Below are positions 10,801 to 34,526 of a stretch of DNA of 64,000 nucleotides, one piece after another (position 1 is the first letter of the stretch; the number at the start of each line of letters is the position of its first letter). The translations under genes and the position numbers were made by a program. Source of the stretch: Nemertoderma westbladi (taxonomy: Eukaryota > Animalia > Xenacoelomorpha); NCBI GenBank assembly GCA_032718475.1, contig JAUCBJ010006450.1:1-64000 (forward strand), given 5' to 3'. A model generated the notes under the pieces. The model did no database searches. It was not told where the DNA came from and worked only from the letters and a program-made list of their open reading frames with translations.

Positions 10801-12586
10801 AAAGATTGCTACAATGAACGCACGCACGCTGAAAGCACATACCAAACAGGGTGACATGGTCGCTCTGGCAATGGAATATAACATCGACATCATCTGCATC
10901 CAAGAACATCGGATTTGTCAAGAAGACACTGCCATGAAGTACAATGACATTGGAAATGGATGTAACAAGCTCAGCAGTAAGAAACTCGGCCAATGCATCA
11001 ATTGGTGGAGTAGGAATTCTGCTAAGCCCATTTGCACTTAAGACCCTAAACAACATTGAATCTATAAATTCTAGGGTTATGATCGCAACATTTGATGGGA
11101 ATCCCAAGGCAACAGTTATATGTTGCTACAGTCCAACCAATGCCTCAGAGCCAGAACAAGCAGTCAAGTTTTATGAAGAACTGACTGGACTTAGAAAGTA
11201 GGCCTACATTCCGAAACACAATGTTAAAGTCATTGCTGGTGACCTGAATGCGCAAATTGGCCCAGAAGACATCAAGGGTTACATCTATAACACCAGTTCT
11301 AACAGAAATGGGTACTTACTTTTAGACCTAATGGAAGAATGTGAATTGATACCAACAAACAACACATTCGAAAAGAGTAAGGGGAAGCTATGGACCTTTC
11401 AATACCCTAATGGAACCAAAGCACAACTGGATTACATCCTTATAAACAAAAAGAGGAGAAACAGCATGATCAACTGCGAGGCATACAGCTCGTTCAACCT
11501 AATTGGTTCGGACCACAGAATTGTGACTGCAGAGATCAGACTCAGTTTGAGAGCCAGCAAACCCAGGACAAACAAGCAAATCAAATATGACTGGGAGTAA
11601 CTCAGAACTGACAATGCTGTAAAGGAGGCTTATACAGTAGAAGTTCAAAACCGCTTTGAAGCACTTCAGTCAATGGATGAAGACCAATCCACCAATTCAA
11701 TATACCAGAATATAATAACAGCCCACAAGGAATCAGCTAAGAGGCATATCCCCCAGAAACCCAAACGAAAACAGTATGTGCCATGGCAAAACTCTGAGGT
11801 TACTTGTAAGAGAGAAGATCTTAAGATAGCCTACAAAGTTAAAACCGAACAACCAACAACCGAAAACATTAACAAGGTTGAGAAAGCTAAGGATGATCTT
11901 AAATTGGCCTACAACATCAGCCAGGAAAAGTACATACAGGATAAAACTGAAGCAATTACAACTGCTCACATACAGCTAGGGATGTCCCGGAATTCCGTTC
12001 CGGACGGAATTCCGGCTGTTTTTGCCCGATTCCGGTTCCGGCCGGAATTGCCGGAATGGGGTCAATTCCGGCCGGAATTTTACCGGAATTACCAGGTTCC
12101 TAACTAGTTTGATAGTTGCAATTAGTTTGTTAAATTATTATCAACATTTATAATATTATTTAAACATTATTACCAATTATATCGTTTAAGATACTTTTCA
12201 ACACTTGTAAAAAAGTATAGTACAAAAAGTATAGTTTTCTTCGACCGTTAGAGCTCTAACATTTAAGGATGAAAGACATAGATGCCCATTGGTTAGTCCC
12301 TTCAAACCATTCGTGCCGAATCGAAAACTGCCTTGGACCACATGCGGGGATCGAACCCACGACCTCCAGAGAGATGGGAATTCAATGCAACCACTTCACC
12401 AAGGTGGAACCTAACTAACCTATCTAACGAGGGAAAATTCACAGCCACCCCGTTTTTTACAGTGAATGCAGTCTTGATGGGAATGTAACACATTTCCAAA
12501 AAAAATTCACCTGGTATTCAAACTAAAGTGGTCCCACCTTGTGTTACACCACTTACTGTAGTATTCATATACAATTCAATCAAAAT
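7795..12586. repeat. Head-to-tail tandem duplication of ~2.4 kb (7795-10189 / 10190-12586)
   Basis: The two copies are nearly identical, each with a LINE 5' end plus MITE; the ORF track repeats at an offset of ~2392-2397. Confidence 0.95.
7900..9579 (+). mobile_element. RTE-like LINE (LINE A), duplicated 5' part with AP endonuclease, disrupted
   Basis: APE motifs IATMNART, ICIQEHR, GGVGILL, CYSPTN, AGDLNA, QLDYILIN, GSDHRIV, with frameshifts and stops. Confidence 0.9.
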
Positions 12587-12942: not shown

Positions 12943-14150
12943 CCCTATTACCACTGGGGGGGGGGGGGGGGGGGGGGGGGGGGGGCGAATCGGCCCCTTC
13001 CTAGTTTATAGTTGCTGTAACTATGCAACCACATTACGTACAGGCCCAATTTTTATTGAGAATTAGCCAAATTTAATGCCGCATCTTTTGCAAAAAACGA
13101 CGTTGCAATTGGATTTCTACTTTTCGATGTGGGTGCCACCTCAAAATTTGGTCTCCAGCACCAAATTTTTTGAAATTTTCGAATTTTACAAATTCATTCG
13201 TGATTTAGTAATTATTTATGTTTGGGCTATTTTTATTTATTTTTATTGGTTTGGATCACTCTAATGCTCTATATAACTATATAAGTGTAGGGTACGTCAT
13301 TTTTGGAGCACCAAAATTAGGGCGTGGCACTTTAAAATTTCAAAATTACTTTATTCGGAAAATTTACTAAAGTTTTGATTTCGAAGCATTTTTATTGGTT
13401 TTCTGGAGCGCTGAATTGATTGAAAGTAATATAGAAGCCTGAAGACGTAGTGGTTCGCCATTTTTGGTGCCCCAAAATTAGGGCGTGGCACTTCAAATTT
13501 TGAAAAATACGAGATTCGGAAAATACACTAAAGTTTTGATTTCAAATTATTTTTATAGGTTTTCTGTAGCGCTGAATCGATTGAAAGTAATATAGATGCC
13601 TCAAATCCTTGGTATACGTAATAATTAGGGCGTGGCACTTCAAATTTTCAAAATTACTTTATTCGGAAAAAACACTAAAGTTTTGATTACAAAAAATGGC
13701 TAACCTCTAAGTCTTCAGGCTTCTATATTACTTTCAATCGATTCAGCGGTCTAGAAAACCTATATAAATGCGTTAAAATTTCAATTTTGGTTTATTTTCC
13801 GAATCTCGTATTTTTCAAAATTTCAAGTGCCACGCCCTAATTTTGGTGCACCAAAAATGGCGAACCACTAAGTCTTCAGGCTTCTATATTACTTTCAATC
13901 GATTCAGCGGCCCAGAAAACCTATAAAGATGCGTTGAAATAAAAAAATTAGGGGCATTTTCTGAACATCTAATTTTTCAAAATTTTAAGTGCCACGCCCA
14001 CTTCTTAGGTGCACGAAAAATAGCATCCACTTCAATTTTTGGAAATGGAATATAATCACATTCGATTCAGCGTCTTGAAAAACCTACTAAATCTAGCCAA
14101 CACTGCCACACTATTAGTTTTTAGAAAACGAAAAATTTTGTAATTTTGTC
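12943..14150. mobile_element. piggyBac-like non-autonomous element, right end lost
   Basis: Begins TTAA|CCCT followed by a poly-G run; internal ~150 bp repeats (TTAGGGCGTGGCACTT) in direct and inverted orientation; no matching AGGG|TTAA end found. Confidence 0.55.
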
Positions 14151-14262
14151 CTCGAGCCACAGTGGAAAGTGTATTTTTATACGGGGGTGAGACATGGACA
14201 CTGACTAAATCACTTGAACAACGAATTGATGGTTGCTACACAAGACTACTAACTGACTAGGG

Positions 14263-17200
14263 TGATAAACAACCGCGACCTCTATACTAACAGCAGAACT
14301 GTTGAACAGACCAATACCCGTTAATATCCTTCTGCCAACCTAATAAGCTCTCGCCTATCCAATAAGACACAAAGACTGCTCTACTGTTAAGTAAAGGGGA
14401 TCAGGAGCGTGCTATTACTAAATTGTAAGGGTTGCTAAATACAAAACCGCTACTTACCGTTGGATGGCGCTAATCTGCCGTCTGCTAATATATTTTACTA
14501 AATTTACACAACTCCTGCAAAATCGCTTGTTCCTTTCTCTACCGATTGCTCAATAGAGAGCTAACTGTTCGAATTTATGAGCCACGCAGGAATAACCAAA
14601 ACAATAAACCCGAGTCGGCTCCCTAAGCTTACTTAAGACGAGTGCGAGAGGCCTTGCACTCAGAGTATTCTTACGCCTAATTCTATCACTATTAAAGCAC
14701 GCTATTACCTACGTCTTTCTAATCGCGAATACTGGAGGTTCCCTAACATAATGTGTGAATGCGAGAATATTTAAAATAATCAAAATGATACAGTAACTGT
14801 TTCTACGTGGATAGTACCACTCCGAGTCTAAAACTGCCCGCGGCTGGCTTTAGGCCAGCAAAACTACTAGCGTATCGTGCGTACCGAATAGTGCGTTCTA
14901 GCTGATTGCCCGCTAATGCAAATAACCGCTCAGCGTGAATAGTTTACAGTACACTAATTATTACCTTAGCTACTCTCCGCTATGCTGCGTACTAATTCTT
15001 AATTTTTACTAATTAATTACAGTCACAAATATTTAACAGCGTACTAATTACTAAGAGTTCCAGAATACGTAATTCTAATTTATCACGCAACAGGTTTCGC
15101 TAGTAATAGCCTAAATTGCCGTATTACTTTGACCTAATCAGTAACTAATTATTGTAACTAAGAAATAGAAATCAATCAAAGGGAAAAGAGCGCCTATCTA
15201 AGCATTCGTAATCTTAGGCACACTTCAATAACACACCAATCAGCGTTAGAAATCACAGTTTACAATTGTGCAATTCACTACTCGTACTCCACACTCAACG
15301 TTATAATACGCGCAGGCCTCTCCCGGATACATCTAGGATTCCTAACTAACCCAATTCCTGCCCCCCTAATACTAAATAGAGACAAAACCTGCATCATCAG
15401 CCCCCTAGATACTGTACCAGCGATTGGTCTGCGTGCCGCAGTGCAAGATACCCGCCCGCAACGGTGACCCTGGCCAGCGTAGCCCGCTTTGAATCCTCCG
15501 CTCTCTCCTAGTCGCTCAACCCCCCGATGCGCCCACCGCCCACTGGCACCTTAGCCCTCCATGATGCTAATAGCTACCGTAGCGGCGCATGCAAATCACA
15601 AAGTCTGACAGTCTCAGAAATCCCTTAGGATTATTGCGCAGAAAGGAATCACATAGAACCATTAATCAAAAGGTAGAAATCATAGTTCAGTTGTAATTAG
15701 CAGTAATCGAAGGAATTATTGAGAAACACAAGCAAAGTAATCGCACTAGCAAATCATTCCAAGAAATTAATCCAAATTAGCAAATTGCAGAAAATACGAT
15801 ATCCTAATACAAAATTAGAGACAGCTCAGCAAGTAAATTGTAACAGGGGTGTGTCATGTGATGAGTAAGGGTATACAACATTAACACGTTCGTGGGGCCT
15901 TCGCGCAGCACGAGGCCCAGTTATGAGATACAAATTAATATCGAGCGACTGTATCACAAAATCAGTATTTAACTTTATAAATTAGTAAAATTTAGAAATT
16001 TAACCACACCGCCAATCAATCAAAAAAAGAGGGACAGTACGTGTTCAGCCCTTTAAATCTGCACCCCCACCCCACCCCACCACCCCCCCCCCCCCCCACC
16101 CTTCCCACCCACCAATACATAACCGCGACATCTACCACCCACGGAAGGTAGCACGAACTTATTTCCAATCGCACGTTCAATATGCGAAGCCAGGTCGTTT
16201 ATAGGAATATAATCTACGCAGTACTAAATACAGTCGATGCAGTAATGAATGATATTCAAATAATTTATTTAATATACTGTTAATGCCTCTGAAAACTTAG
16301 ACAATTAAAATACACAGAAATCCCATCAAAAAATAATAAGCATAATATTTTGAGAAATAAACAATTTTGGATATAAGCCTTCTGCGCACTGGTAATCTTA
16401 TTGACTGACAATCATTAAATGAGATCTGTCTATTACCTGAGACTAAAGAACACAGACTCTATAGTGTAATAGGAGGTAGGGAATGCAGGTTTCAATCTCG
16501 TTAGGTCTAGCTGGCAGCCGTGTGGCTAGTTACATACAACCCCCCTCCACTGGCATTCCCAGCAACTGGCTCCCTTACACACACATCCCCCATCTATGTA
16601 CCAGCCAACTTGCAAGTTGGCCAATAAATGATCAGTATTTAATAGAATCAATTTTTTATGCCATTTTAATTACTTTAGATCAATTAAAGACACAATTATT
16701 AAAGCAAATCACTTGAACTAATTAAAAACTATAATAGAATGGCGTATGTGGATTACATCTGTATAATTTTTAATTATAATTATTTAAATCTTATACTGTA
16801 AAACAATTAATTTCCTTTAAAAGGCAGGTTGAAAATGGTGTTTTCACCGTAATCAACTTAATTAACTAATTAACTGCTATTATCTTAGCTTCTCGAAGGC
16901 CACACGGAAATTCTACTTGGAAAATTTCTAAACTTTTGCCAAACAACATGTGTACCAAGTTTGGATAGATTTCATCAAAGATTGGCCGAGTTATTAACGT
17001 TTAAAATTGAACACGACAGAACGACAGAACGACAGAACGACAGGTTGATTAATGGTACCACTACGCTAAGGCTCACTCACTTCGTGGCTCGCCCCACAGC
17101 ATGAACATTAAGGTTCTACCGGCACACCGCCAATTTATAGGTGATCCGGATGGGGTGATGCAATAAGGTGACTCAATCGCTCTCCCATTGGCTCTCCAGT

Positions 17201-17675
17201 CCGTGCTAGCATTAAACCAACCTGGAAGCAGTTAGTCCAATAAGGAGGCCGGATTGTAGCCCTATCGTTTGCCCAAACCTCAAATTATTACCTTATATGG
17301 TAATGGTTCACGTCCCTGGCCGCTGAATGGCCAGGACAGCGTCCCTATATGATAGCCCTACTGATGCTAATATCAGCAAGCACAAAATCCAGGGTCCGAA
17401 TAAACTTGCTACCCTGGGACTATCTACATATATCCTAATACAAAATTACGTAGGTAGGGCTACATACTATACAAAATGGATGGATGCAAAATATATGGGC
17501 GTTTTAACTTCCTTACCTAAATGTCACCGCACTGTGCCTTATCTAAATAATTATACTGCACAACGGACTAATATTACGTACAGTATAACGGACTAATATT
17601 GCATACTGAAAACGGACTAATACTGCATACAGTATAACGACTAATAATGTGGATACAGCGCCATATACCGTAACA
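14263..17675 (-). repeat. 3' LTR (2201 bp net, with a 1212-bp insertion at 15887-17098)
   Basis: Matches 32405-34526 plus 39152-39227 with only a few substitutions and short indels; ends TGATAAAC...CCGTAACA on the + strand. Confidence 0.95.
15887..17098. mobile_element. Non-autonomous element (Helentron/DINE-like or Crypton-like) inserted in the 3' LTR
   Basis: Absent from the other LTR (empty site ATTAACAGCATG); ACA repeated at both junctions; ends GTGGGGCCTTCGCGCAGCACG ... CTTCGTGGCTCGCCCC; (GACAGAAC)n microsatellite near the 3' end. Confidence 0.8.
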
Positions 17676-18164
17676 CCGCTCCAAGGGAAATCATATAATG
17701 TTTCCCTCCAATTGTAGAAGAGTATAAGGTGATGTATACAAAACAAAATAAATTTCTTCCAACCAATCTAAATAACATAATAATTCTACTATTTACAAAT
17801 ATTGCCATAGATATTGCATAATGAATTGCATACAAATTAAATTTACAAAATATTATCTCTCTCATTGTTTAACGATTATTACATACAAATTAAATTTACA
17901 AAATATTGCTTCTCGTTCATTCTTACTACATAATGATTACTACATACAAAATCAAATATAAAAATTTTGCTAGGGCAAGTGAAAGGAGTAAGCCAAACCC
18001 GCAGGTTTGTCTCCCCAATCACTTCCTTCGCCTCTTTCATAATATAAATTCAAATAACTCAACTAGTGTATACGAGTCTAGTCGAAAATTTTCAAATGCT
18101 ACAATATACATCAGAGCGAAGATGATGTATATATCTAGAGTCTGTCGCCCTGTGCTATAATGTA

Positions 18165-19310
18165 TTATCGACCCGCTCCTGGGTTCTTTGGGCTCGCTCC
18201 TCTCTTCCGCCCCCTTCCCAGATACACTAATCTACCTCCAGTCGACTCCGTTGACGGCGTCCGTGAGGCGTCACTCCCCGGAACCGGCGACGACGTTCCC
18301 TGAGCCCCGACAGATTCTCGGCTGGTACTTCTCCCTCGGCCTCGTCCCAATTGTCGCGCTCCCGTGGTCGCTTCCGCCAACTCTTCCTTCTGCAGTTGCA
18401 CACGCGCTTTCTCCGACGCCCCCTGCGCCTTGCGCTGCAACCGTTGAGCTTCTATAATTGAGTGGTAGTGGTCGTCCTTGACTTGACGCTTGTCTTGGAC
18501 CTCTCCTCCTGGTTCTTTCCGCGAGCCTTGAGCTCCAGCGGTCGTCGCTGTGGTCGCTGCGATCCTTTGTTCCTGTATCCTCTCGGCGGTCAATGAACCC
18601 ACTGGCACATGAGTCAACAAGAATTCGTTGCGGTATTGTATAGCCGCCATCCTCCAATCACCTCGCGCGCGTACCACTTTTCTAGTCTCCGTAAATACAC
18701 CCTTCGTAATGCGATCGCAAATAGCAACGAAGTTCCATGTGTACTTATTGTCCATGTTCAATTGTCTGAAGTACTCTCGAACTACGATAACTCCAGTGTT
18801 TTGTGGAAGGTCTTGAGCAGTTAGGATGAGCTCCTGATATTGTGGTAGCGATTGTAGATATGGCTTGTACGCAACATGCGATGGGTCTACCGCCCAAAAC
18901 CCATATCCCGCTTTAAATGGTAACCAACGCATCTGCGCTTGAATATGGTAATCGGCCACACCCTCCCACTTATCTAACATCTCCCGAAGTAGGTTAGCGC
19001 TATGGTTTTGAAAGGAATCATCTCGCAGCTGACATCTCGCGCTACGATGTCCCTTTACCCCACAATATCCACATTGAGAAATGAAGACGGTGCACGTGTG
19101 AAACGAATGGTCGGTCTCATTACACCAACGACAGACTTTATGTGCCGCCTCCACTACCGCGTCGCACGACTTTAGATTGTGCCTTGTGCTGCCGCACAAC
19201 TTGCACCTACGCGCTTGTGGAAACCAGGCCCTCTCGTATATGAGGTCTCCAATCGGTTTCGCACTTCCTTCCTTCCCAATGTCTAATACGATGTCGTCCT
19301 CTCCAGTCAA
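18165..19310 (-). CDS. Extra ORF, C-terminal part: three CCHC zinc knuckles plus RGRG-rich tail
   Basis: CKLCGSTRHNLKSC, CRWCNETDHSFHTC, CGYCGVKGHRSARC; GRGRGR and GRGRKRG. No ATG before the knuckles; the frame is open from ~19455 and overlaps the upstream ORF in the -1 frame. Confidence 0.8.
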   Translation of the reverse strand: MTGEDDIVLDIGKEGSAKPIGDLIYERAWFPQARRCKLCGSTRHNLKSCDAVVEAAHKVCRWCNETDHSFHTCTVFISQCGYCGVKGHRSARCQLRDDSFQNHSANLLREMLDKWEGVADYHIQAQMRWLPFKAGYGFWAVDPSHVAYKPYLQSLPQYQELILTAQDLPQNTGVIVVREYFRQLNMDNKYTWNFVAICDRITKGVFTETRKVVRARGDWRMAAIQYRNEFLLTHVPVGSLTAERIQEQRIAATTATTAGAQGSRKEPGGEVQDKRQVKDDHYHSIIEAQRLQRKAQGASEKARVQLQKEELAEATTGARQLGRGRGRSTSRESVGAQGTSSPVPGSDASRTPSTESTGGRLVYLGRGRKRGASPKNPGAGR

Positions 19311-19363
19311 CGGTTGTCGATCCGGAACAAAGTAAACATCCTCGCCCTTGTCCTCTATATCCT

Positions 19364-21874
19364 CTATATTTCCTCCCGCGTTCGTTTCGGATATGTCTTC
19401 TCCACCGGAAGATCTACTCCGAACACCTCTACTAACGTTTCCGGCCAGCCCTCCTTAACAGGTCTATCAGCCTCCGAGTGGAAGGGAGTACCAAACCCGC
19501 GGGTTTGATTCCCGAACCACTTCTCCAAAGCTTCTGGCGTCGGATATTCCATCGACGGTCGGTCTCCCAAATCTCCGATGTTCTGTCGATATACTCCTTC
19601 GAATATCGCTAATCCTCTCCTAACCATCGACGTATTCTCTAACGATTGGTTGAAGAACGGGGTTAAGAAACGCTTCATCACGTCGGATTGGATTCCCCCT
19701 TTCGAGCGAACGTATTGATCTCCTCCGAATACCAATGGATGACGCTTCAAAACTCGCGCAACGATATCCGCTAATAAACAAGTCACCGTGTTCGTCTCAA
19801 GCACCAAATAATATTGTAGCGACGCACGGGGTGGCGCGCAAATGTTCCAATACACTAACGCTTGCCGCTTGAAGTGGGATTTGAACTCCGCTCCCGGTGG
19901 CGTGTTGTATTCGCCATACGCCTCCTCATACTTCTTTTGCGTCTTTAACTTAAAGTCCCAATTATACAACAAGTGTGCTATAAAGCCCATACCAGTCTTG
20001 GCAGAGTTGGGATACTCCCTATAAATTCCAATATCCTGTGCCCATAGCAACAATAGCTTGGTGTCGACAAACGGTCTCGGCAATCTATCTTCCAGATCAG
20101 TCATGGCGTTGAAGTCACTCTCTAAATCGCTCTGGACTCCCGATCCCACCTTGACGTAATCTTGGTTGAGAATAGCCTCTCTAACTTTCTTGGGTAGCAT
20201 CCTGGCGTCGATACGCTCCGCTCCGTGCATACCTCCTCGCCTGCATACCTCCAAAATCTGTTCCCTAGGATCCTTCCCTTTCCGATATTGTGTCGTTATG
20301 ATGGGCTCCGGTCTCTCTCGATCCGCCCTCACACGCATAAACACATGAGTCACACCATCGGCCGCACGAATTTGAATACACTTGCTGGTCAAACATTCCT
20401 GATGGGACCCTCCTTCATTGTCGTAGAACATCACCCTCCAATCTTGCAGTGATTCCTCCGTCTTCCTCCACTGACGCTGAATCTCGTCTGATGGGGTCCA
20501 CATGCGCTCGATCACCTTGTGGTCATCATATCGGGTATAAGAACCCTTCCTCCTCAGCCACGTCTGGTCTACCTCCTCGTCATCTGGGAATGTAGCCACC
20601 GCGACCCATACCTTGATGTACTTATCCAACCATCCGAATAACTTACTCTCCTTCCCCGGAGCTCCAATCTTATCCAACGTGTCATAATCTGTGATCTGCA
20701 TTGGGACATCACGCAAGAACTTCGCGCATAAAACTTCCCGTAGACAGTCAACGTTCCAATGGTCCGCCATTCTTACCATCGGCAAGAATCGTATCGCTTC
20801 TCGCGACTCCGGATGATCTACTAATATCGCAGGTTCGGTGCCGTCGGAATAATACACCGGTCCGGGTTGAGATACGACCTGTGGAACAAATCCGGTCACT
20901 CTCCTCGTCTCCTCTTGATGTCTATCCGCGGTCTTATTATACTCCGCTATCCTGTTCTCAAATAACTCTTTCGCCTTCGCCGCTCGCTCCTCCTGCCGCA
21001 ACGCGTCTATGTCGTCCTGATGCTCAGGCGTGAGGCTTCTCACTCGGTGAGGTGAAGTAAACGTAGTCCAGGGACTCGAGAGCTCCAAACCCGCGGGTTT
21101 GGTACCCGAGTCCCGCGCCGCTTCGCGCCGCGCCTCTAGATCCTTGTAGGCTCGGTACAGCGAAATGGCCGCTGCCGTCTCTATCAAACTGGGTGTCGAA
21201 CAGGGTTTAATCTCCGTATACGGATCTAATGTCGTAACGGTCGGCGTAATAGGTCTCGGAGGTCGCTTTCCGCTGAAGTCGATACTGATCATCGGGTTGC
21301 TCATCGGGTAACCTCCCTCGTTATATCTAAGGAATTGGTGAGCTGGACATCGCGTTAATATCGGTTCCGGATGTTGCTCGTCTAATCGGTCGGGAATCGC
21401 CACGTCCTGTTTATTCATGCATTCACCACACTTGTAGAAGAGCTTGTACACGCTGAAGACTTTCGGCGTCTCCTGATCCTCACCTCGAGTCCTCCGGTAC
21501 AGATGCATTCCGTCGAACTGGTCTCGGACTGCAGGTAGAGGCTCCTCATGTCGTAAATACATATTCATATGGTATAGTCGTGCGATTTCCTCGTCCGGAT
21601 CTGCGCTAATGTCGCACACGTCCAAAGCGAAGTCGTAGGGATACCGCGTGCGATACTCTCTCCGCAAGACTTCCATCCGGTCCCCCAACGCTCTCATTCT
21701 TTCTCTCCGTAATTCTTTATCATAACTTGGTTTGTACTTTCCATTTAGCTCCATCACGGACCGCCCATGGTAGTAAACGTTCGAATCTTTACATCCCGGT
21801 CGCGCGAACGGTAGCTCCGCCTCCTCTCTGGCAGTAAATCCTCTGCGCGGTTGCGCTCTAATATCCCTCTCCAT
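19364..21874 (-). CDS. Extra ORF, N-terminal part: DnaQ-like DEDDy 3'-5' exonuclease (WRN/EXD/Mut-7-like) with an N-terminal CxxC..CxxH motif
   Basis: 836-aa open frame. VMFYDNEG (ExoI), CIQI, LPKKVREAILNQDYVKVGSGVQSD (ExoII), FVDT, TGMGFIAHLL and W...YYLVLE (ExoIII-like) occur in the order of the WRN exonuclease motifs. Confidence 0.72.
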   Translation of the reverse strand: MERDIRAQPRRGFTAREEAELPFARPGCKDSNVYYHGRSVMELNGKYKPSYDKELRRERMRALGDRMEVLRREYRTRYPYDFALDVCDISADPDEEIARLYHMNMYLRHEEPLPAVRDQFDGMHLYRRTRGEDQETPKVFSVYKLFYKCGECMNKQDVAIPDRLDEQHPEPILTRCPAHQFLRYNEGGYPMSNPMISIDFSGKRPPRPITPTVTTLDPYTEIKPCSTPSLIETAAAISLYRAYKDLEARREAARDSGTKPAGLELSSPWTTFTSPHRVRSLTPEHQDDIDALRQEERAAKAKELFENRIAEYNKTADRHQEETRRVTGFVPQVVSQPGPVYYSDGTEPAILVDHPESREAIRFLPMVRMADHWNVDCLREVLCAKFLRDVPMQITDYDTLDKIGAPGKESKLFGWLDKYIKVWVAVATFPDDEEVDQTWLRRKGSYTRYDDHKVIERMWTPSDEIQRQWRKTEESLQDWRVMFYDNEGGSHQECLTSKCIQIRAADGVTHVFMRVRADRERPEPIITTQYRKGKDPREQILEVCRRGGMHGAERIDARMLPKKVREAILNQDYVKVGSGVQSDLESDFNAMTDLEDRLPRPFVDTKLLLLWAQDIGIYREYPNSAKTGMGFIAHLLYNWDFKLKTQKKYEEAYGEYNTPPGAEFKSHFKRQALVYWNICAPPRASLQYYLVLETNTVTCLLADIVARVLKRHPLVFGGDQYVRSKGGIQSDVMKRFLTPFFNQSLENTSMVRRGLAIFEGVYRQNIGDLGDRPSMEYPTPEALEKWFGNQTRGFGTPFHSEADRPVKEGWPETLVEVFGVDLPVEKTYPKRTREEI

Positions 21875-22636
21875 TATGTTACGCGTATATACATATATAT
21901 ATATATCCCAATAAGTGCCGTTACGTAACCAATTACACTGTGGGTAAATCAGTTAGATGTCGCCGAAGGACAGACCTCCCGAACCCCCCGCCGCCTTCCA
22001 GCAGTTCAGGTTCGACTCTCTAGATCCCGTCTCTTCCTAACTAACTATCCTCTAACCTATTCCCATGCATAGCGCAAAAACTTTGGAGATAAACTGGCCG
22101 TGACCAACTCACTTTTTGATGCCCAAACTACTCCCATTACTCGTACTAAACTACAGTAGTTAGAAAGGACCATAGCCACAATACTCGACTATACCAAACC
22201 CACAGGTTTGATAATCGAACATCACACATCCTGCAAACTACTGAGTGGGGTCCATGTACGCCTCTGGTGCTACTAACCTTTAGCACCTTAGTTGCACTGT
22301 TGGCACCAATCTGTGGAAGTTGCTAAACTCAATTTACACTCCTACATAATATAGCCATCACCATGGTTTCTAAATGCTATTTTCCAGGCTTCACGACTTT
22401 TCAAATTACTGTTTATCTATAGACGAATTCTAAAACGCGTCTATACACAACGTCTGGAATTGTCTTGGGTTCACTTCTAATTTTAAAATTTTCTAATTTT
22501 CCAAAAATTTTTGAAAATAAAATTTTGTTTTGATACCCACTAGACAAAACTCAACGCAAATCACCACAACCCCGCTCCTATGCATCTCCTTGTATTTGCA
22601 TACGAGGAATGCATACGAAGTGAGTTGCGTCCAACA

Positions 22637-25600
22637 CTAACTCTGTTTTGAGGCAGGAGACAAATTATAATCTCCCGTCTCGATACGTGTCTCCTCTAAT
22701 AACACAATATCTTGGACCGGTCGGTCCAAGGTGTGTAAACCATTAGTTTTACACTTCTTTGGGTGCGGACACTTGCACCTAATTTTCACAGTGACTGTGC
22801 GCACTATGTTTTGCACGTCTGGGTGTGTGTGCAAGATCACTCCAGTCTCCCAATATTTTCTCTTGACAATGGGTTCGGTTATCAACACGTAATCTCCCCT
22901 TTGGAGACTCCGAACCGTTTTGTACCACTTTGTTCTGGTGGATATGGTGGGAAGATAGTATTCCCGCCAATATTCCCAGAATGTGTACGCGACAAATTGA
23001 GTCATTTTCCAGCTTTTACGACTATATAGGTCGGCACTAATGGGTTCTGATGCCGGCACAAGAAATGCTGGACTCTGCATTAGCAAATGATTCGGCGTTA
23101 ATGCAACACCGTCTGGCAACATAGCTATCGGCCTCGAGTTTAGGGTATGCTCGATTTCAATGAAAGCTGTGACCAGTTCGTCGTCGGTAAGTTGTTTGTT
23201 CACAGGCAATGTTTTGGCAATGGCCTGCTTCACAGAGCGAACCAAACGCTCCCAACTTCCTCCTCTCCAAGGACTTTCTGGAGTATTGAATCTCCATTCT
23301 ACTCGTTGCGGCAAAAGTGCTGCAGAAATTTCCTTATTCTGTGCCGCTTTATGAGCCGCGTTCAACTCGCTATTCCCTCCGACAAAGTTTGTACCCTTAT
23401 CGGAGTAAAACGCCTTTACTAGTCCTCTCCTGGCCATAAATCTCTTCAAGGCCAGGAGCAGAGATTTGGTCGACATGTCTGCCACACGCTCGATATGTAT
23501 GGCTCTACTCGCCATACATGTCAGTAGCAGACCCCATCGCTTGTGGGTCAGCCGTCCACTCTTTGCTTCAATCGGACCAAAACAGTCCACCCCTGTATTC
23601 GTAAAGGGTGGGTCATATGCCTGCACTCTCGCCTCCGGGAGTTCAGCCATCTCCTGTTCCAATACTCTGGCGTTCACCCTTTTGCAAACCAGACAGGCGT
23701 CGTACATAGTGCCTACTGCCCTGCTTGGCTGCAATAGAATGAATCGCTGTCTCGCTGCCGACAAACAGTGTAACTTTCCCGCGTGATGCAACCTCTTATG
23801 TATATCCCATAGAATCGCTCTTTGCAATTCTATTGGGTGACTAGGGATTATCACTGGGAACCGAAACTGTGAGTTTATGTCGACAGTCTGGATTCTCGAT
23901 CTATGACAAATCAAACCCTTATGGATTAACGGACTCCATTTTCTAAGGGGTTTATAGAGAACTAGTCGTTGAGCCGATAATAGATGGAATTCTTTAGGGA
24001 AGGCACACATTTGATAATGCTTCAAATGCTTTAATTCCGCTTGATCAATCTCATCCTCTGTCAGAGGTTGTTTCAATTTCCGAATTCGCTCACTATTGGT
24101 GCTCAATGGTTCTCTCAAATGTTTCGAATGTTTTAAACAAAGGTACGAAACGTATCGGCTTAACCACGCAGTTCTTTTACAAATTGTCAGCCAAGAGGCA
24201 GACGAATTTAGTAATTTTTCATAAACACTGCATGACTCTAATGCCAGCGACGGTTGTCCGCTAACCAATGGAAGTTTCGAATCCAAACCCGCAGGTTTGG
24301 AAACCAAAGGATCCATTGTGTCGGTCAATTTCTGTCCGTCACTTACCAACTGTGACTGCTGTCCAGTCTGTAAGGGTGGTTTTATGTCATAACTTACCCT
24401 TCCGGACCTAGTAGTCACGTAAGTCTGTTGGTCTGACAGGTCTCCAGGCCGCTCCAATGACTCTTCAGGCCGCTCCAATGACTCTTCAGGCCGCTCCAAT
24501 GACTTAAGTTTGGCTTTAGACTTCGACTTAGAGACTTTCTCCACCTTGACTTCTGCATCTTCAGGCATCGGATTGGTCACTATCTTTAGTTGCTCTGGCC
24601 AATGTTCCTGTGTCCTCGTTAGAAAATCAGGTCCATGCAACCAAAACTCCTGCGACTCTTCCTGACAGAATTCCGCCGGCATTGCGCCTCTCGAAGTTAT
24701 GTCGGCCGGGTTCAACACTCCCGGACAATGTCTCCATTGTTCCTTCGTCGAAAAGTCAACGATCTGAGCGCGTCTGTTGGCCACAAATGTCTTTAGTGCA
24801 ATATTGTCGGCCGCAATGTATACTAACACCAAGGATGCGTCCGTCCAATAGAATAAGGTCAATGTCGTGTCTAATTCCTCTGTTATTTGCTTACTTACCT
24901 CGACCGAAACTACAGCCGCCTGTAACTCTGCACGAGGGACAGTCATGTATTTGACCGGCATTGTCTTTGATCTAGAAGTCACAAAGGCCGTCTCAAACTT
25001 GTCCTGACTTACCTCTCGGCGAAGGTAGGCTACCATACCAAAGCCGGTGTCACTTGCGTCACTGAATAGATGGAGTTCGAGATCAGCTGGAAATACCAGC
25101 TGATTCGGAAAGTAGGAACGGGGTACATCTATGTTTTTCAATAGATGCAACTCGGCTTCCCACTCCCTCCACTGCTTTGCATGTATAGGAGATATTGGTT
25201 CGTCCCACTCTACGTCGGACAACCAAATTTTCCTCATGCACGCTCGTGCCTGTAATATAACCGGACTGATAAAGTTCATCGGGTCAAATAGTCTACTTAA
25301 AGTCGATAAGCAAATCCTCTTAGTCAAAACTTTGTCTGGGCTACTGGGCTCAAATCTAACTCTTACCTGGAACTTATCTGAGTTCGGGTTCCAAGCGAGT
25401 CCCAGTACTCGCGCCATGGGGATTGGTTCTACCCCCAATTCTATGTCTCCGCTCCCGCGATCTTTTACCGGGAACGACTCTAATAGGGCCTCCGAGTTAG
25501 TAGTGAACTTGGTCAGAGGAAATCCCCCTGTAGCCAAGCACTCATGCAGGCCGTGAGCCACTTCTATGGCTTGTTCCGCTGTGTCCTTGGACACCAATCC

Positions 25601-28600
25601 GTCGTCCATATAGAAGTTTCTCAAGATGGACTCGATCACCTCTATTGGGTACTTACCAATCTGGGCTGTTGCCGTTTTCTTTAGAACGAACAGCGTGCCA
25701 TTCGGACTATCGCGGGCGCCAAATATCCTAACGTACATTTGGTATGTAACCACTGGGCCGGATAAGTCTTCATTCTCGTACCAGAGAAAGCGAAGGCTAT
25801 CCTGGTCTGCCTTACAGGCTCTTACCTGGTGGAACATCGCCTCGATGTCACAAGTAAATGCGAATCGCCGCTGTCTAAAACGTAACAGTATTCCAATCAA
25901 ATAGTTATTCAGGTTGGGACCATCCATCAACTCTGAATTCAGGGACATACCTCTATAGACTGCTGCGCAGTCGTTGACTACTCGGACTTTGTCAGGTTTG
26001 TCAGGGTGAGTCACATAGTGGTGTGGAAGGTAATAAGTCTGGTCTGTCACTGAGTCAGGGTCCTCTACCTTCCCAGCAAATCCCTTGGCGAAATAGTTGT
26101 TGATCTGGGCGCAATACTTCTCCCTAATGTCTGGATTCTTCAACAACCGAGCCCTTACTCCGTTCAATCTTTTCAAGGCTAAGTTGTAGTTGTTCTCCAA
26201 CTTAGGTGGTTGTCGACGCCACAACATTCCAACTTCAAAATGTCCAGTCGGTAGCAGACGTATGGTATCTTCCATCATCTCCAACGACCGCTTCTCATCA
26301 GTAGACATGGCTAGGTCATATCCACCGGGTTCCATTGCGTCCCTATCCAGCCATTCGGCGGTTCTGGCTCCTGTCTCGAGGTCCTGGCGTATCAATTCCT
26401 TCTGTAATTCCTCCCCACTGTACTGGAAAATGTCTAGGTCTCGATATTTAGCCACTTGACCCTGCACTATGTCTGTATAAGTCAAAACGTTAGTCAGATA
26501 GGTAGCGTGGGCCGCTGAACCAGACCCACGGGTCTGATAACAGTAGTCCTCGGGTTCACTATCTGTCCGGTCATTGTGCAGTGGTTCCGACAACCTAACA
26601 TTATCGGGAATCAACTCCTCGTCCGACTCGCTAAAGTCACTATAGTGGTCAATACAGGTTCTCCTAAACTCGTCTATGTCTGGTGGTTCTACTAACGGTG
26701 GTTGAGTTATAGGCTGTAATTCGTCGTATCTGTCCATTGGCTTGTCGCCACCTGTAAACTCATAAGACATGGGTACTCGTGTATACCAACCTAATATAGT
26801 CCTATGGGCATGCGGTCCATTGACATGCGGCTCAGCTGGTCTCGTTTCCCATATTTGGTGTGCGATCAGCTGTTCTGCACCAATCAACATAGAAACATTC
26901 CTATAACCTACCTGATGTCTCGGTATCCTGAGCTTGTCAAAATACTCCTGTGCTATGGGACTCATCGGCGGCACCTTACCTAATTGCCTGCCGAACCCCT
27001 TCATAGCTAGACACTTAAATCCGTCCAATGGCAAAGCTTTCCGTTCTTGTCGAGTATGTTGGTCTCTCGGAAGTAGGGAATCTAGTTCTACCGAAATTCT
27101 GTGTCCCTTGAGGTCTCCTACCCCATGCATAGACTTCAACTCTATTTGGATCTCCTCGGCGTCCTGGAAGCTAGAAACGGCTCTCGCCACTTCCTCGTCG
27201 ATATAGGATAATGTGGACGCAGTGTCCAACATCACATATATTCGCTTCGATCCCTTATCGCCAGTGAGTTTCACCGGAATCACGCTAAATATTTCCGACG
27301 TGGCCGATGATAAATACGTCCGCGCGCTGGTCGATGAACTATCCGCGGTGAAACCTTGGCAGGTCACTTCTCTCGCGCTCGACTCGCCATCCTCGTCCGA
27401 CGAACCTGGTTGGTAACCATCGTCCTGGATGCCAGTGTACGTATTCCTCCTTATCGATATGGGTTCTTTGCTCCCCTTCCTGTGAGGATTTCGCTGTAAG
27501 TAACGGTCCGTTGGGGTATGGAAATCCGCATGTAGCAACTTGTGATGTAGTCTGCCGCATTCCATGCATCCGTCCTTGCTGTTCGGGCACTGCCGCCGTA
27601 CATGACCTGGCGCAAGACATGCCCAACAGGTGTCCAACGTCCGCACTTGAACTCTTCTCTGTTCCGAATTTAATTCTTTGAACCGTCTGCAACTATCTAA
27701 CTTATGATCGTCAGATCTCACCTCCTTTAGTAAACAGTATTGGCAACCTACAAATCCATCCGGCAACTCCTGTTGCTTTAACCTAGGTCTATCTAACCGC
27801 TCACCTGACCATACTCGCGAGTCTGATCTAAAGGCTGGGGTACTCGAATTATATCTGTCTACTGAGTTAAATGTCACAGTGGTCCTGTCATCGTCAAAAC
27901 TTACCATAGACTTACCGGTAACAGGTTTAGACTCCCTCATATTCTCTTCTGAGAAGTTTGATTTCATCTCTGCTACTGCGTCTGTGGCTATCATGTCATG
28001 AATATGCTGAAGTGTCAACACCTTACCTTGGCCCTCCAACTTATTCTCTAATTTGCGCCATTTCTGTCTGTAACGCATGTTTAGACGTCTTATTACGCTC
28101 TTTAAAACTTCGGCGTGATCACCATGATGAGGTAGATTCACCGTCCTCAAGATGTCCAATGCGTTCGAAATAGCGTTCGCTAAGTTCAACAGCTCTAACG
28201 GAGTTGTAATCCTTCCGCCCTTACCCAAGTCTTCTACTATCGACTGCGCCATCTTCGTTTTATTCCCGTAGATGTCACTAAGCGTCTTCATCGCTAACTC
28301 GAATGCTCTTTCGTTGCCGACGAAGTTATCAGCAATGGCTCTAGGTTCTCGATGGAGCATTTGAAGCAAATAGTTGAACTTCTCGTTGGGAGTAAAGGTG
28401 CTGTTGGTTAGCTGCTCGTCGACATAGGTTTTAAAGGTCCTCCAATGCTTATGGTTGCCCATAAACCTCTGGGGTTGTTGCGTCGGCAGTCCTTGCCTAG
28501 CAGCAAACTTACCTATGTCCCTAAGGGTTGCGTCGTTCCGGGTTAACAAATGGTTTAGTTCTGCAGGGTTGTTAAGTCTGGTCCTTTCCCGGTGGTTCAA

Positions 28601-30325
28601 ACTTACCTGCTCCGCGTCGGTCCTTCTTTCCTTATAGTTTCGGGACTTCTGACGTCTCATGTCTTCCTCTTCATCGCTTGACTCGGTGTCAGTCCTTAGC
28701 GCTCGCGATGGTTTGCGTGCCGAGGCCCTGACCCAAGCCTCCTCAATAAATCTTTCAGCCGAATTTTCGAAATTGGGATTATGGATATTCGGGACAGGCG
28801 TCCTTACCTGAGGTCTATGTGGTATAGTCTCCTCCGATATGCGTACTCGTTGACTAGGCTGGACTTTATCTAACTCAGGCCTGCTAGGATTTGAATTACT
28901 TCTTACCTGGGCTGCTTCCTTTAACCGTAGGTTGCTAAGCATGTCCGTTATAGGTTGGATGTGCGGCGATATAGCTTGCGCTAAACTAGCACTTAACTCA
29001 TCTCTCGTAATAAATTCCTGGCTAGGGTTCTGTTGTATAGTCGGCTCTATCTGAGTAATCCGCTGTCTCTCATATAATCCCTCTTCCGGTTTAACCCGGA
29101 AGTTCTCCGTCGAACTGGGTCGGCGCTCTGTCCGCGTATTCCAAACCCGCGGGTTCGGTTCGCCAAGTACTCGTCCTGTCGGAGTTTCTCTAAACTCTCC
29201 GTTGTCGCGTTCGGTATATAGTGGTGCGGTGTTCCGATGACGTAGATCCTGAGCGATGGGTGAAGCACCAATACCAACTGGCGTGCGATATGTAGAGAAC
29301 GGTTTAGCGATCCGTGTACTCGTAATAGCTGGACCGGGTATAGGAATTCTGGTCATCGTCGACTCGCGTATAGTCGGAGTTCTCGCTTCCTGTTCGGCCT
29401 TCTGCAGTGCGAACAGTTCTCGCAACTCAGTCCCTACACTCGCCCCACATTCTTCGATCATTCGCATCCCCTTCTCGGCGATTTCGTTCGCCTTCCTAGT
29501 CCGTTCTTCGCTCTCTAAACTTAATCTCGCACTTTCCAACTGTGCCAGTTTACGTTCTTCTTCTTCCCTCGCTCGTCGTGCTGCGCTCTCTTCTTCCACT
29601 CGCGCCTTTTCTTCATACAATGCGCGTCTTCTTTTTTTGATCTCGAGTTCGCGTTCCTTGCGTCCGCGTTCGAGTTGAAGCTCGCGCTCCTTCTGTTCAC
29701 GATCGAGTTTCTTGCGTTCGCGTTCGGCTTGGAGTTCGCGTTTCTTCGCTTCCTGTTCGCGTTCGAGTTGGAGCTCGCGTTTCTTCGCTTCCCGCTCGCA
29801 TTCAAGTTGGAGTTCGCGTTCTCTCTGTTCGCGTTCGAGTTCCTCGCGCTCGCGCTCGGCTTGAAGTTCGCGTTCCCTTTGCTCGCGTTCCGCTCGCTCG
29901 CGCTTACTTATCTCTTCCAACTCTCGTAACTCTGCGTCCAACTTACGTGTGCGCTCCCGTTCCCGCTCGGCTTCCTTCCGTGCTTCCTGTGCACGCAAAA
30001 CTTCCGCCTGTTGTTCGTCCAGTCGGCGTCTTCTTTCCTCCGCCGAGTTGTGAGAAACAAGGGATCTAGCACATATAACTTTACCTCGCGCGTGACTAAC
30101 CTGGGAATCGCCGCTGTCTCTAGATGCATCGTCGGGTGGAGTCAACGTCCTCTGTTGGATGTTCTCCGTCATCGGTAGCACCTGACCTGGTACCACCACT
30201 CCATTCTGCATCAGCCAGCTAGTAACTTCCCTCTGATAACGGCGCTCTTCTTTATCTTGCGTCTCTTCACGCTCCACTAAGTCTCTTAACTCTGCGTCAC
30301 TCACTTGAGTCGCCTTGATGCCCAT
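22637..30325 (-). CDS. Bel/Pao Gag-Pol polyprotein
   Basis: DUF1759-like gag (FMGNHKHWRTF, EKFNYL); three Cys/His knuckles ending CMECGRLHHKLLH; protease LDTAS; RT YLPHH, DIEAMFHQV, FYMDD; RNase H FSDAS, PRAEL, WTDAS, NPAD; integrase HHCC, VDCFGP, SDKGTNF, WERLVRSVK; C-terminal FWEYWREYYL. Confidence 0.97.
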   Translation of the reverse strand: MGIKATQVSDAELRDLVEREETQDKEERRYQREVTSWLMQNGVVVPGQVLPMTENIQQRTLTPPDDASRDSGDSQVSHARGKVICARSLVSHNSAEERRRRLDEQQAEVLRAQEARKEAERERERTRKLDAELRELEEISKRERAEREQRERELQAEREREELEREQRERELQLECEREAKKRELQLEREQEAKKRELQAERERKKLDREQKERELQLERGRKERELEIKKRRRALYEEKARVEEESAARRAREEEERKLAQLESARLSLESEERTRKANEIAEKGMRMIEECGASVGTELRELFALQKAEQEARTPTIRESTMTRIPIPGPAITSTRIAKPFSTYRTPVGIGASPIAQDLRHRNTAPLYTERDNGEFRETPTGRVLGEPNPRVWNTRTERRPSSTENFRVKPEEGLYERQRITQIEPTIQQNPSQEFITRDELSASLAQAISPHIQPITDMLSNLRLKEAAQVRSNSNPSRPELDKVQPSQRVRISEETIPHRPQVRTPVPNIHNPNFENSAERFIEEAWVRASARKPSRALRTDTESSDEEEDMRRQKSRNYKERRTDAEQVSLNHRERTRLNNPAELNHLLTRNDATLRDIGKFAARQGLPTQQPQRFMGNHKHWRTFKTYVDEQLTNSTFTPNEKFNYLLQMLHREPRAIADNFVGNERAFELAMKTLSDIYGNKTKMAQSIVEDLGKGGRITTPLELLNLANAISNALDILRTVNLPHHGDHAEVLKSVIRRLNMRYRQKWRKLENKLEGQGKVLTLQHIHDMIATDAVAEMKSNFSEENMRESKPVTGKSMVSFDDDRTTVTFNSVDRYNSSTPAFRSDSRVWSGERLDRPRLKQQELPDGFVGCQYCLLKEVRSDDHKLDSCRRFKELNSEQRRVQVRTLDTCWACLAPGHVRRQCPNSKDGCMECGRLHHKLLHADFHTPTDRYLQRNPHRKGSKEPISIRRNTYTGIQDDGYQPGSSDEDGESSAREVTCQGFTADSSSTSARTYLSSATSEIFSVIPVKLTGDKGSKRIYVMLDTASTLSYIDEEVARAVSSFQDAEEIQIELKSMHGVGDLKGHRISVELDSLLPRDQHTRQERKALPLDGFKCLAMKGFGRQLGKVPPMSPIAQEYFDKLRIPRHQVGYRNVSMLIGAEQLIAHQIWETRPAEPHVNGPHAHRTILGWYTRVPMSYEFTGGDKPMDRYDELQPITQPPLVEPPDIDEFRRTCIDHYSDFSESDEELIPDNVRLSEPLHNDRTDSEPEDYCYQTRGSGSAAHATYLTNVLTYTDIVQGQVAKYRDLDIFQYSGEELQKELIRQDLETGARTAEWLDRDAMEPGGYDLAMSTDEKRSLEMMEDTIRLLPTGHFEVGMLWRRQPPKLENNYNLALKRLNGVRARLLKNPDIREKYCAQINNYFAKGFAGKVEDPDSVTDQTYYLPHHYVTHPDKPDKVRVVNDCAAVYRGMSLNSELMDGPNLNNYLIGILLRFRQRRFAFTCDIEAMFHQVRACKADQDSLRFLWYENEDLSGPVVTYQMYVRIFGARDSPNGTLFVLKKTATAQIGKYPIEVIESILRNFYMDDGLVSKDTAEQAIEVAHGLHECLATGGFPLTKFTTNSEALLESFPVKDRGSGDIELGVEPIPMARVLGLAWNPNSDKFQVRVRFEPSSPDKVLTKRICLSTLSRLFDPMNFISPVILQARACMRKIWLSDVEWDEPISPIHAKQWREWEAELHLLKNIDVPRSYFPNQLVFPADLELHLFSDASDTGFGMVAYLRREVSQDKFETAFVTSRSKTMPVKYMTVPRAELQAAVVSVEVSKQITEELDTTLTLFYWTDASLVLVYIAADNIALKTFVANRRAQIVDFSTKEQWRHCPGVLNPADITSRGAMPAEFCQEESQEFWLHGPDFLTRTQEHWPEQLKIVTNPMPEDAEVKVEKVSKSKSKAKLKSLERPEESLERPEESLERPGDLSDQQTYVTTRSGRVSYDIKPPLQTGQQSQLVSDGQKLTDTMDPLVSKPAGLDSKLPLVSGQPSLALESCSVYEKLLNSSASWLTICKRTAWLSRYVSYLCLKHSKHLREPLSTNSERIRKLKQPLTEDEIDQAELKHLKHYQMCAFPKEFHLLSAQRLVLYKPLRKWSPLIHKGLICHRSRIQTVDINSQFRFPVIIPSHPIELQRAILWDIHKRLHHAGKLHCLSAARQRFILLQPSRAVGTMYDACLVCKRVNARVLEQEMAELPEARVQAYDPPFTNTGVDCFGPIEAKSGRLTHKRWGLLLTCMASRAIHIERVADMSTKSLLLALKRFMARRGLVKAFYSDKGTNFVGGNSELNAAHKAAQNKEISAALLPQRVEWRFNTPESPWRGGSWERLVRSVKQAIAKTLPVNKQLTDDELVTAFIEIEHTLNSRPIAMLPDGVALTPNHLLMQSPAFLVPASEPISADLYSRKSWKMTQFVAYTFWEYWREYYLPTISTRTKWYKTVRSLQRGDYVLITEPIVKRKYWETGVILHTHPDVQNIVRTVTVKIRCKCPHPKKCKTNGLHTLDRPVQDIVLLEETRIETGDYNLSPASKQS

Positions 30326-31044
30326 AGCAGCCAGTTCTCCGTCCTAACTCGTCGAAATCGCTCCGATAACTCGCGGTGCTCCAACAAGGCTGCTAAAACC
30401 CTGTCGTAAATCCTCGTCGCCACGTCGCTCGACTGAGACTCCACTGCCTTCTTCGCTAGGACTGCAAGCTCCTCCGTCTGCTTGAATAACGCTGAGTTAT
30501 ATCCTCTTCTAACCTCTACTAACTCTACCCTCCCGATGTTCGCTGAGTCGGCTAACATCTTCCTTACCTTATCCGTCGTCCGAGTTATATGTCCGGCGTG
30601 CGCGCGAAGTTTCTTCTTTATCACGATATCGAACTCTCTATCACTCACCTGACTTACACTCGGTGGACTTGAAGGATTATTTCGGGAACTACGGGTACTC
30701 CTTGCAGCCGTCGGGACCACGGCACTTACCATACCCACAGGTCTGGAAACCGGGCTCCGGGCTCTCGCTTCTGCTACACTACTCTCCCTATCACTCACCT
30801 CTGTCCGGGCTGCTGTACAGTCCTTCCTATCAGTAGTGGTAGGGGATCCTAATACTATTACTTGAGGTTGCTGTTCTTCCTCACTAGTCACTGTCTCGTC
30901 CTCCTGTTCACTTACGTCAGCGTCGCTCGCTGCGTCGTCATAGTCGGCATTGTCGTCAACAGTAATGTTTACGCTATCGTCAGTCGGCGGTCCGGCCGCC
31001 GTCTCGTAGCTGTCCTCTAGTGCCTCCTTGTCTGAGACACTCAT
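30301..31044 (-). CDS. N-terminal Gag segment, separated from the polyprotein by a -1 frameshift
   Basis: ATG at 31044 (MSVSDKEALED..., acidic then helical); overlaps the start of the 2562-aa frame. Confidence 0.7.
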   Translation of the reverse strand: MSVSDKEALEDSYETAAGPPTDDSVNITVDDNADYDDAASDADVSEQEDETVTSEEEQQPQVIVLGSPTTTDRKDCTAARTEVSDRESSVAEARARSPVSRPVGMVSAVVPTAARSTRSSRNNPSSPPSVSQVSDREFDIVIKKKLRAHAGHITRTTDKVRKMLADSANIGRVELVEVRRGYNSALFKQTEELAVLAKKAVESQSSDVATRIYDRVLAALLEHRELSERFRRVRTENWLLWASRRLK

Positions 31045-34000: not shown

Positions 34001-34526
34001 GAGTAAGGGTATACAACATTAACAGCATGAACATTAAGGTTCTACCGGCACACCGCCAATTTATAGGTGATCCGGATGGGGTGATGCAATAAGGTGACTC
34101 AATCGCTCTCCCATTGGCTCTCCAGTCCGTGCTAGCATTAAACCAACCTGGAAGCAGTTAGTCCAATAAGGAGGCCGGATTGTAGCCCTATCGTTTGCCC
34201 AAACCTCAAATTATTACCTTATATGGTAATGGTTCACGTCCCTGGCCGCTGAATGGCCAGGACAGCGTCCCTATATGATAGCCCTACTGATGCTAATATC
34301 AGCAAGCACAAAATCCAGGGTCCGAATAAACTTGCTACCCTGGGACTATCTACATATATCCTAATACAAAATTACGTAGGTAGGGCTACATACTATACAA
34401 AATGGATGGTTGCAAAATATATGGGCGTTTTAACTTCCTTACCTAAATGTCACCGCACTGTGCCTTATCTAAATAATTATACTGCACAACGGACTAATAT
34501 TACGTACAGTATAACGGACTAATAAT

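Follow-up and report, generated by a model that had tools for sequence, protein, structure and literature searches.

The 64,000-nt stretch of Nemertoderma westbladi DNA analysed here (contig JAUCBJ010006450.1, positions 1 to 64,000; hereafter the window) carries on its minus strand a complete, recent Bel/Pao long terminal repeat (LTR) retrotransposon. Between its pol region and its 3' LTR lies a third open reading frame (ORF3), which encodes a predicted DEDDy-type 3'-5' exonuclease domain and three CCHC zinc knuckles. An earlier, sequence-only reading of this DNA had placed such a combination at this site as the ORF3 of a Bel/Pao element. The site is confirmed by the Pfam matches of gag-pol, the LTR pair and the target-site duplication described below, and the combination is supported by the anatomy of the element together with a homologue that holds both parts in one ORF.

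Anatomy of the element and its third gene

Both LTRs are interrupted by nested insertions. The 3' LTR (14263-17675, minus strand), which has TG...CA ends and about 2.2 kb of sequence of its own, is split by a 1.2-kb insertion (15887-17095), and the 5' LTR (32405-39227, minus strand) consists of 32405-34526 plus a final 85 nt at 39143-39227, separated by a 4.6-kb hAT-like DNA transposon. By blastn, the paired LTR segments are 99.6% identical (14263-15886 vs. 32405-34024) and 99.8% identical (17096-17598 vs. 34022-34524), and a 5-bp target-site duplication, TAGGG, is present at both outer ends (14258-14262 and 39228-39232). Minus the two insertions, the element measures ~19 kb, with LTRs of 2.2 kb and an interior of 14,729 nt. 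A short purine-rich tract adjoining the 3' LTR (17676-17684, minus strand) is a putative polypurine tract. The element is multi-copy in public runs and belongs to a highly polymorphic family; its copies were observed as short public contigs in sequencing runs, of which X1 and X2 represent one sample. As for the insertions themselves, the one in the 3' LTR shows an apparent 3-bp duplication and no long ORF. The transposon in the 5' LTR (34527-39143), which is hAT-like in its features, has terminal inverted repeats starting with TAGGG, an 8-bp duplication with one mismatch, and a 941-aa ORF (35940-38765) with a CxxH motif and no Pfam match.

Gag-pol is open for 2568 aa (22637-30343, minus strand) and comprises a coiled coil, DUF1759, gag boxes, protease, reverse transcriptase (RT), RNase H, integrase and DUF5641. 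Matches above the Pfam cut-off were obtained for Peptidase_A17 (PF05380, E 5.5e-39), DUF1759 (PF03564) and DUF5641 (PF18701). Three gag Cys-His boxes are present, as are the protease DTA, RT YMDD and RNase H DAS motifs, and the domain order is protease-RT-RNase H-integrase. A 285-aa open frame located upstream (30301-31158, minus strand), overlapping gag-pol by 43 nt, is probably the N-terminus of gag, either frameshifted or broken. The overlap itself (30301-30343) contains no slippery heptamer and could reflect a programmed shift or a second break. Within gag, the segment at 28900-30000 holds E/R-rich coiled-coil repeats of unusual length; a 433-aa open frame at 3-1301 (minus strand) also encodes a coiled coil, which is Ala/Glu-rich and gave no tblastn match to the gag of the element.

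ORF3 was described in the sequence-only reading as 3.7 kb of same-strand coding sequence. The strand is indeed shared, but a break was overlooked, and the coding sequence falls into two frames, P0001 (21952-19364) and P0002 (19454-18165). The first methionine of P0001 (Met27) is at 21874, and the 836 aa from there to 19364 contain ~475 aa of N-terminal sequence without a Pfam match, followed by the predicted exonuclease domain. P0002, open for 429 aa, begins with an acidic linker and continues with three CX2CX4HX4C knuckles (residues 84-141; 19205-19032, minus strand), a W/G/F-rich segment and a low-complexity R/G/S tail. The knuckles are as the sequence-only reading gave them, while the RGRG repeats that it reported after them proved to be two short tracts (GRG at residues 370 and 413).

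Since they occupy two separate frames, the exonuclease and the knuckles are unjoined in the window copy. Across the break (19363-19365, minus strand), all of the depth listed for runs X1, X2 and X3 differs in length from the window. Because of these length differences, and because the homologue P0005 (see below) has the same parts in a single frame, the break is most likely private to the window copy or its assembly, and the ORF3 of the family a single frame. Non-triplet indels occur among the copies at 21893-21946, immediately 5' of 21874, suggesting that the ATG at 21874 is the likely start of ORF3 and that the stretch before it is non-coding. A candidate splice acceptor (21938-21960, minus strand), composed of a branch-like CTAAC, pyrimidines and CAG, lies 63 nt 5' of this ATG. 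In three runs we observed a sub-family in which the N-terminal part of ORF3 is shorter by ~110 codons (joint at 21399-21729) and the frame is kept. Hydropathy analysis agreed with the earlier statement that a membrane anchor is absent from ORF3 (best 19-residue mean, 1.34 in P0001 and 0.55 in P0002) and did not reveal the signal peptide and transmembrane anchor of an env-like protein.

The predicted exonuclease domain and selection on ORF3

The predicted domain spans 19733-20446 (minus strand), with D511 (20422), E513 (20416), D609 (20128), Y715 (19810) and E719 (19798) as its putative catalytic residues. All of the exonuclease motifs that had been quoted from the sequence alone were found on the minus strand in P0001, namely FYDNEG (starting with F509 at 20428), CIQI (20380), VKVGSGVQSD (20155), FVDT (20071), GMGFIAHLL (19993) and YYLVLE (19813), and the ExoI D-x-E, which terminates a strand, is followed in order by the ExoII Asp. 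A phmmer search of 1.84 billion representative proteins returned a single match for the window protein, P0005 (648 aa, E 8.4e-6), which is 27% identical to the window domain over 162 residues. P0005 has exonuclease motifs, a linker, three knuckles and the W/G/F segment in one ORF, in the same order as ORF3. A BLASTP alignment of P0002 with P0005 (25% over 128 aa, E 1e-6) covers the three knuckles and the segment that follows, and the knuckles of P0005 match HIV-1 nucleocapsid among PDB sequences (E 1e-4). When the sequences were trimmed before alignment, without which MAFFT misplaced ExoI, D511/E513, D609 and Y715/E719 paired with D62/E64, D130 and Y229/E233 of P0005.

Several comparisons point to the DNA_pol_A_exo1 family, PF01612. 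In the ESM Atlas, the window domain scored 0.90, its second- and third-ranked matches being PF01612 clusters, and the P0005 domain scored 0.94-0.95, with 171-186 features in common and PF01612 in 25 of 30 matches. A bacterial PF01612 profile was assembled from 18 fetched regions, of which 15 were translated and 12 stand-alone exonucleases kept (the exclusions were one sequence containing masked residues and two belonging to a different type). Against this profile, the ExoII segment scored 2.9 bits in P0001 and 8.3 bits in P0005, compared to maxima of 2.1 and 3.5 among 1000 shuffles each, and hhalign in local mode gave 65.6%, while 100 column shuffles gave 4.8% or less. Over ExoI plus the two strands that follow it, the FYDNEG register scored 26.1 vs. 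8.1 for a register on D544/E546 (8 of 300 shuffles reached 26.1). A six-block order test with gaps of up to 70 and a longer last block also chose the FYDNEG register, at a level attained by 1 of 1000 shuffles for P0001 and by none of 1000 for P0005.

Other results weigh against the assignment. Pfam gave no match for the whole of P0001 at E<=1 or for the domain at E<=10, so that the check proposed with the sequence-only reading (DNA_pol_A_exo1 and WRN_exo) came back empty for the window protein; NCBIfam and PHROG likewise gave it no match, and P0005 itself reached PF01612 with E 0.2 and 11.9 bits vs. a cut-off of 23.6. The Atlas matches of the window domain have 120-143 features in common, below the 170 usually seen in genuine members of the family, and hhalign in global mode gave 1.4%. 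The FYDNEG register requires an insertion of ~30 residues after the third strand; with gaps limited to 50, the six-block test chose the D544/E546 register (4 of 500 shuffles), and both the change of the limit from 50 to 70 and the longer last block were set after this first outcome. As ExoIII, the block test chose YYIYCE in P0005 and passed over YYLVLE in P0001, and YYLVLE is taken as ExoIII because of its alignment to P0005. The Y-x3-acid motif with Glu for Asp that had been proposed earlier thus stands in the alignment and not in the block test. The fourth acid is Glu in both the window protein and P0005. Finally, linkage to Bel/Pao was shown within the family of the window alone.

Structure and homology searches were otherwise unproductive. 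No nuclease was matched in PDB sequence searches with the window protein, and a rotavirus VP4 match (E 0.05-0.9) was taken as chance. Two AlphaFold2 models had a mean predicted local distance difference test (pLDDT) score of 33 and 31, and Foldseek with the first of these low-confidence models matched nothing meaningful. Word-index protein searches over limited length ranges gave no match for the window domain, only P0005 itself for the P0005 query, and none for a two-sequence profile. Locus scans for relatives in viral contigs, metagenome contigs and prokaryote genomes found none; tblastn matches in phages and plasmids were attributed to chance, the two that were fetched having no sensible frames. 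Weighing all of these results, we consider a DnaQ fold for the window domain very likely. The DEDDy/WRN-type assignment of the sequence-only reading gains indirect support from P0005, the Atlas, the bacterial profile and the block test, while a Pfam, PDB or fold match for it was not obtained. Catalytic competence we grade lower than the fold, because the fourth acid is Glu.

We then compared ORF3 among copies of the element. The set of differences comprised 36 of the 40 rows listed (of 87), the other four having been dropped because they lie at the break or beyond the frame, and 5 upstream rows of 40 listed (of 246); the listing was blind to codon position, and the rows are not independent events, two of them lying in one codon. 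Synonymous changes accounted for 34 of the 41 differences vs. an expected 22-32%, corresponding to an approximate ratio of nonsynonymous to synonymous change (dN/dS) of 0.06-0.10. When 13 rows from one X6 contig were left out, 26 of 28 differences were synonymous, and in the P0002 part the count was 6 of 9 scored differences. Because of this excess of synonymous differences, we conclude that ORF3 is under purifying selection; neutral evolution, which the sequence-only reading had named as an outcome contrary to its proposal, fails among the differences listed. The five catalytic codons show no difference among those listed (40 of 87 rows). ORF3 codon usage tracks that of gag-pol (rho 0.54 and 0.42) and not that of two DNA-transposon ORFs (-0.16 to 0.05). 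ORF3 has long served as a functional component of the element.

The primer site and possible roles of ORF3

A TGG-type tRNA primer site was not found after the 5' LTR in the one copy judged, host tRNA sequences not being used. The primer-site position (32394-32404, minus strand) is complementary over 11 nt to a site within the LTR (33441-33451, with a second copy at 15303-15313, minus strand), with 10 Watson-Crick pairs and one G-U pair, and of all sites in the element, this LTR site best complements the 11 nt that directly follow the 5' LTR. An 86-nt repeat occurs 2.8 times in the 5' leader (32166-32409, minus strand). In each copy there is an 11-bp hairpin, the 3' arm of which duplicates the junction of the LTR end and the primer site. 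The best promoter candidate (CCAAT and TATAAA at 34065) lies ~590-600 nt upstream of the LTR complement, suggesting that priming does not simply follow the Tf1 arrangement. As the element contains no tRNA gene and no Rfam match, no element-encoded tRNA-like primer is seen, and inspection of the LTR by eye revealed no convincing TATA-linked primer-building intron. A host tRNA fragment may act as the primer instead.

We tentatively favor a role for ORF3, as a DEDDy-type exonuclease with three knuckles, in binding the RNA of the element and trimming single-stranded RNA 3' ends, a plausible reading that is far from assured. ORF3 would be made from a spliced subgenomic RNA, for which the acceptor-like sequence at 21938-21960 is a candidate site. 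The knuckles may bind the element's own RNA, and because they are of the nucleocapsid type, RNA would be the substrate of the nuclease. During particle assembly or at the start of reverse transcription, the DEDDy domain would then trim single-stranded RNA 3' tails, stopping at structure. RNase D, Rrp6 and mut-7 trim single-stranded 3' tails in this manner and stop at structure (bdelloid rotifer study, PMC5408684, in part). Trimming is favored because, with no tRNA-type primer site, an RNA 3' end would be needed from the element's own transcript. Three points count against it: we found no direct tie between the nuclease and the primer; the pairing is modest and known from a single copy, 24 of 2000 shuffled LTRs reaching 10 pairs; and the available text on bdelloid elements with DEDDy cargo does not report self-priming (PMC5408684). 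In a more specific form of the proposal, priming would be free of tRNA, the 11-nt LTR complement of an element RNA annealing to the primer site and the knuckle-guided exonuclease trimming the unpaired 3' tail as far as the duplex, which would yield the primer. This we regard as very doubtful, although if it were true, a retrotransposon encoding its own primer-maturation enzyme would represent a new step in reverse transcription.

Alternatively, the nuclease may counter host defense by degrading or over-trimming small RNAs (piRNA, siRNA or tRNA fragments), the molecules from which these are made, or by-product RNAs that set off silencing. The evidence from selection and motifs applies here just as it does to trimming, the element family is multi-copy and recent, and the accessible part of PMC5408684 both places mut-7 and EXD1 in the nuclease family and shows the cargo recurring in unrelated LTR lineages, as a general advantage would predict. 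Such a role is possible but rather unlikely, however, given that the bdelloid families carrying DEDDy genes are, in that same text, still covered by small RNAs and without a clear gain in copy number (PMC5408684).

A weak or dead DEDD derivative that, comparable to EXD1 or Maelstrom, serves as a scaffold for RNA binding could account for the Glu in place of the fourth acid and for the long insertion needed for the ExoI register, and dead DEDD derivatives do function in piRNA biology according to the available text (PMC5408684). We think this improbable given that the window protein and P0005, which are only 26% identical, agree in all four acids and in the Tyr, and that the catalytic codons are free of listed differences.

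Chances are slimmer still for RT proofreading that would permit the genome to reach roughly double the length usual for Bel/Pao. It would suit an element of ~19 kb vs. 4.2-10 kb (PMC8742986) and the reported ability of WRN-type domains to act on DNA (PMC5408684, in part). ORF3 is, however, a separate gene with knuckles of an RNA-binding type, the family is highly polymorphic, and the text available on the larger elements Ogre (16-25 kb) and Burro (>30 kb) mentions no domain of this kind. Of the three roles offered in the sequence-only reading, proofreading is the weakest. Similarly slim is the prospect that the domain is not of the DnaQ fold but belongs to a conserved protein folded in another way, whose motifs resemble those of the nucleases by chance; this would explain the lack of a curated profile or structure match and the weak global profile alignment, but it runs counter to four partly independent lines leading to PF01612 (the Pfam comparison of P0005, the Atlas, the bacterial profile and the block test). 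Neutral drift of a captured cargo, to which the broken ORF3 of the window copy, the sub-family without ~110 N-terminal codons and bdelloid ORF3s with no clear departure from neutrality (PMC5408684, in part) might point, is largely refuted by the 34 of 41 synonymous differences, an approximate dN/dS of <0.1 and the in-frame nature of the sub-family deletion. The domain is soluble and could be assayed for RNA-end processing vs. silencing suppression vs. proofreading.

Surroundings of the element and comparison with known systems

Elsewhere in the window, a 942-aa ORF (58575-61403), presumably an Academ-type transposase by its motifs, contains RLGGFH, an XPG-like segment and a Cys-rich tail and has no Pfam match above cut-off. 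A fragmented non-LTR retrotransposon lies at 39306-41514 (RVT_1, E 2.9e-28), and a 2.4-kb unit is duplicated in tandem at 7795-12585 with 99% identity. A palindromic array resembling miniature inverted-repeat transposable elements and several minisatellite arrays occupy 13291-13999, 44253-47500, 50671-51801, 55059-57092 and 61699-62333, with repeat periods of 23, 30, 63-65, 147, 182 and 209.

The window domain resembles the PF01612 (DNA_pol_A_exo1/WRN-EXD-like) family in its ExoI strand, h-h-x-h-D-x-E, its F-V-D segment, the pattern L(P)xxlxxxLxxxxxxKVGxxIxxD at ExoII and the Y-x3-acid followed by an amphipathic helix. It differs in falling below the Pfam cut-off, in its long insertion after strand 3, in having Glu as the fourth acid and in its fusion to knuckles. 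The element as a whole resembles Belpaoviridae/Semotivirus in its LTRs, the protease-RT-RNase H-integrase order of gag-pol, the Pao-specific Pfam domains and a third gene at the env position (PMC8742986; PMC3118150, in part). The profile of the International Committee on Taxonomy of Viruses gives Belpaoviridae a size of 4.2-10 kb and LTRs of 0.2-1.2 kb, with an 18-nt tRNA primer-binding site that is typical without being defining (PMC8742986); at ~19 kb, with LTRs of 2.2 kb, the present element is about twice the usual size. Its third gene is not env-like, and the one copy judged has no 18-nt tRNA-type primer site.

Tf1/sushi elements self-prime their reverse transcription, and Tf1 is not known to have an exonuclease gene. 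The present element resembles them in that the sequence right after its 5' LTR complements 11 nt within the LTR and not a tRNA. Hairpin priming is also mentioned for some chromoviruses in the available text of PMC3601003. In contrast to Tf1/sushi, the complement in the present element lies ~590 nt downstream of the promoter candidate and not at the predicted 5' end of the RNA.

In the textbook view, an LTR retrotransposon consists of gag-pol, to which env may be added. Malik et al. in 2000 reportedly mentioned additional domains in the Cer elements of nematodes, an exonuclease possibly among them, and the present case would then be less novel. No report of an exonuclease in Bel/Pao was found in a full-text literature search that left Repbase, GyDB and some older nematode-element papers outside its scope. 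The word "exonuclease" occurs 0 times in the available text of a Bel/Pao survey (PMC3118150) and of mollusc and annelid surveys, and 0 times in PMC13524379. Among the accessory domains of LTR elements, the DnaQ-like one is described as well known (PMC6338049, in part), and the sequence-only reading's impression that this cargo had gone undescribed survives for Bel/Pao alone, since DEDDy ORF3s, with the same guesses as to function, had been published for bdelloid rotifers. Rodriguez, Kenefick and Arkhipova (2017) reported them in the LTR elements Juno and Vesta and on Athena/Terminon elements, proposing 3'-end processing or mut-7-like silencing as their roles (PMC5408684, in part).

As in Juno and Vesta, the predicted DEDDy ORF3 of the present element lies between pol and the 3' LTR, has no membrane anchor and has one acid swapped, as far as the available text of PMC5408684 goes. 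In that text, the carriers are not named Bel/Pao ("bel" and "pao" have 0 occurrences), the motif is DEED vs. DEDE in the window protein, and no significant departure from neutrality is reported, whereas the ORF3 of the window is under purifying selection (PMC5408684). The window ORF3 also adds three CCHC knuckles and a 475-aa N-terminal region. An exonuclease as third gene was known before from rotifer elements, without a sign of selection or function in the text available. New here are the Bel/Pao host superfamily, the predicted WRN/EXD-like DEDE domain, the triple knuckle, the selection and the odd primer site, and the presence of the gene in a second superfamily, with nucleocapsid-type knuckles and clearly under purifying selection, indicates that ORF3 works for the element.

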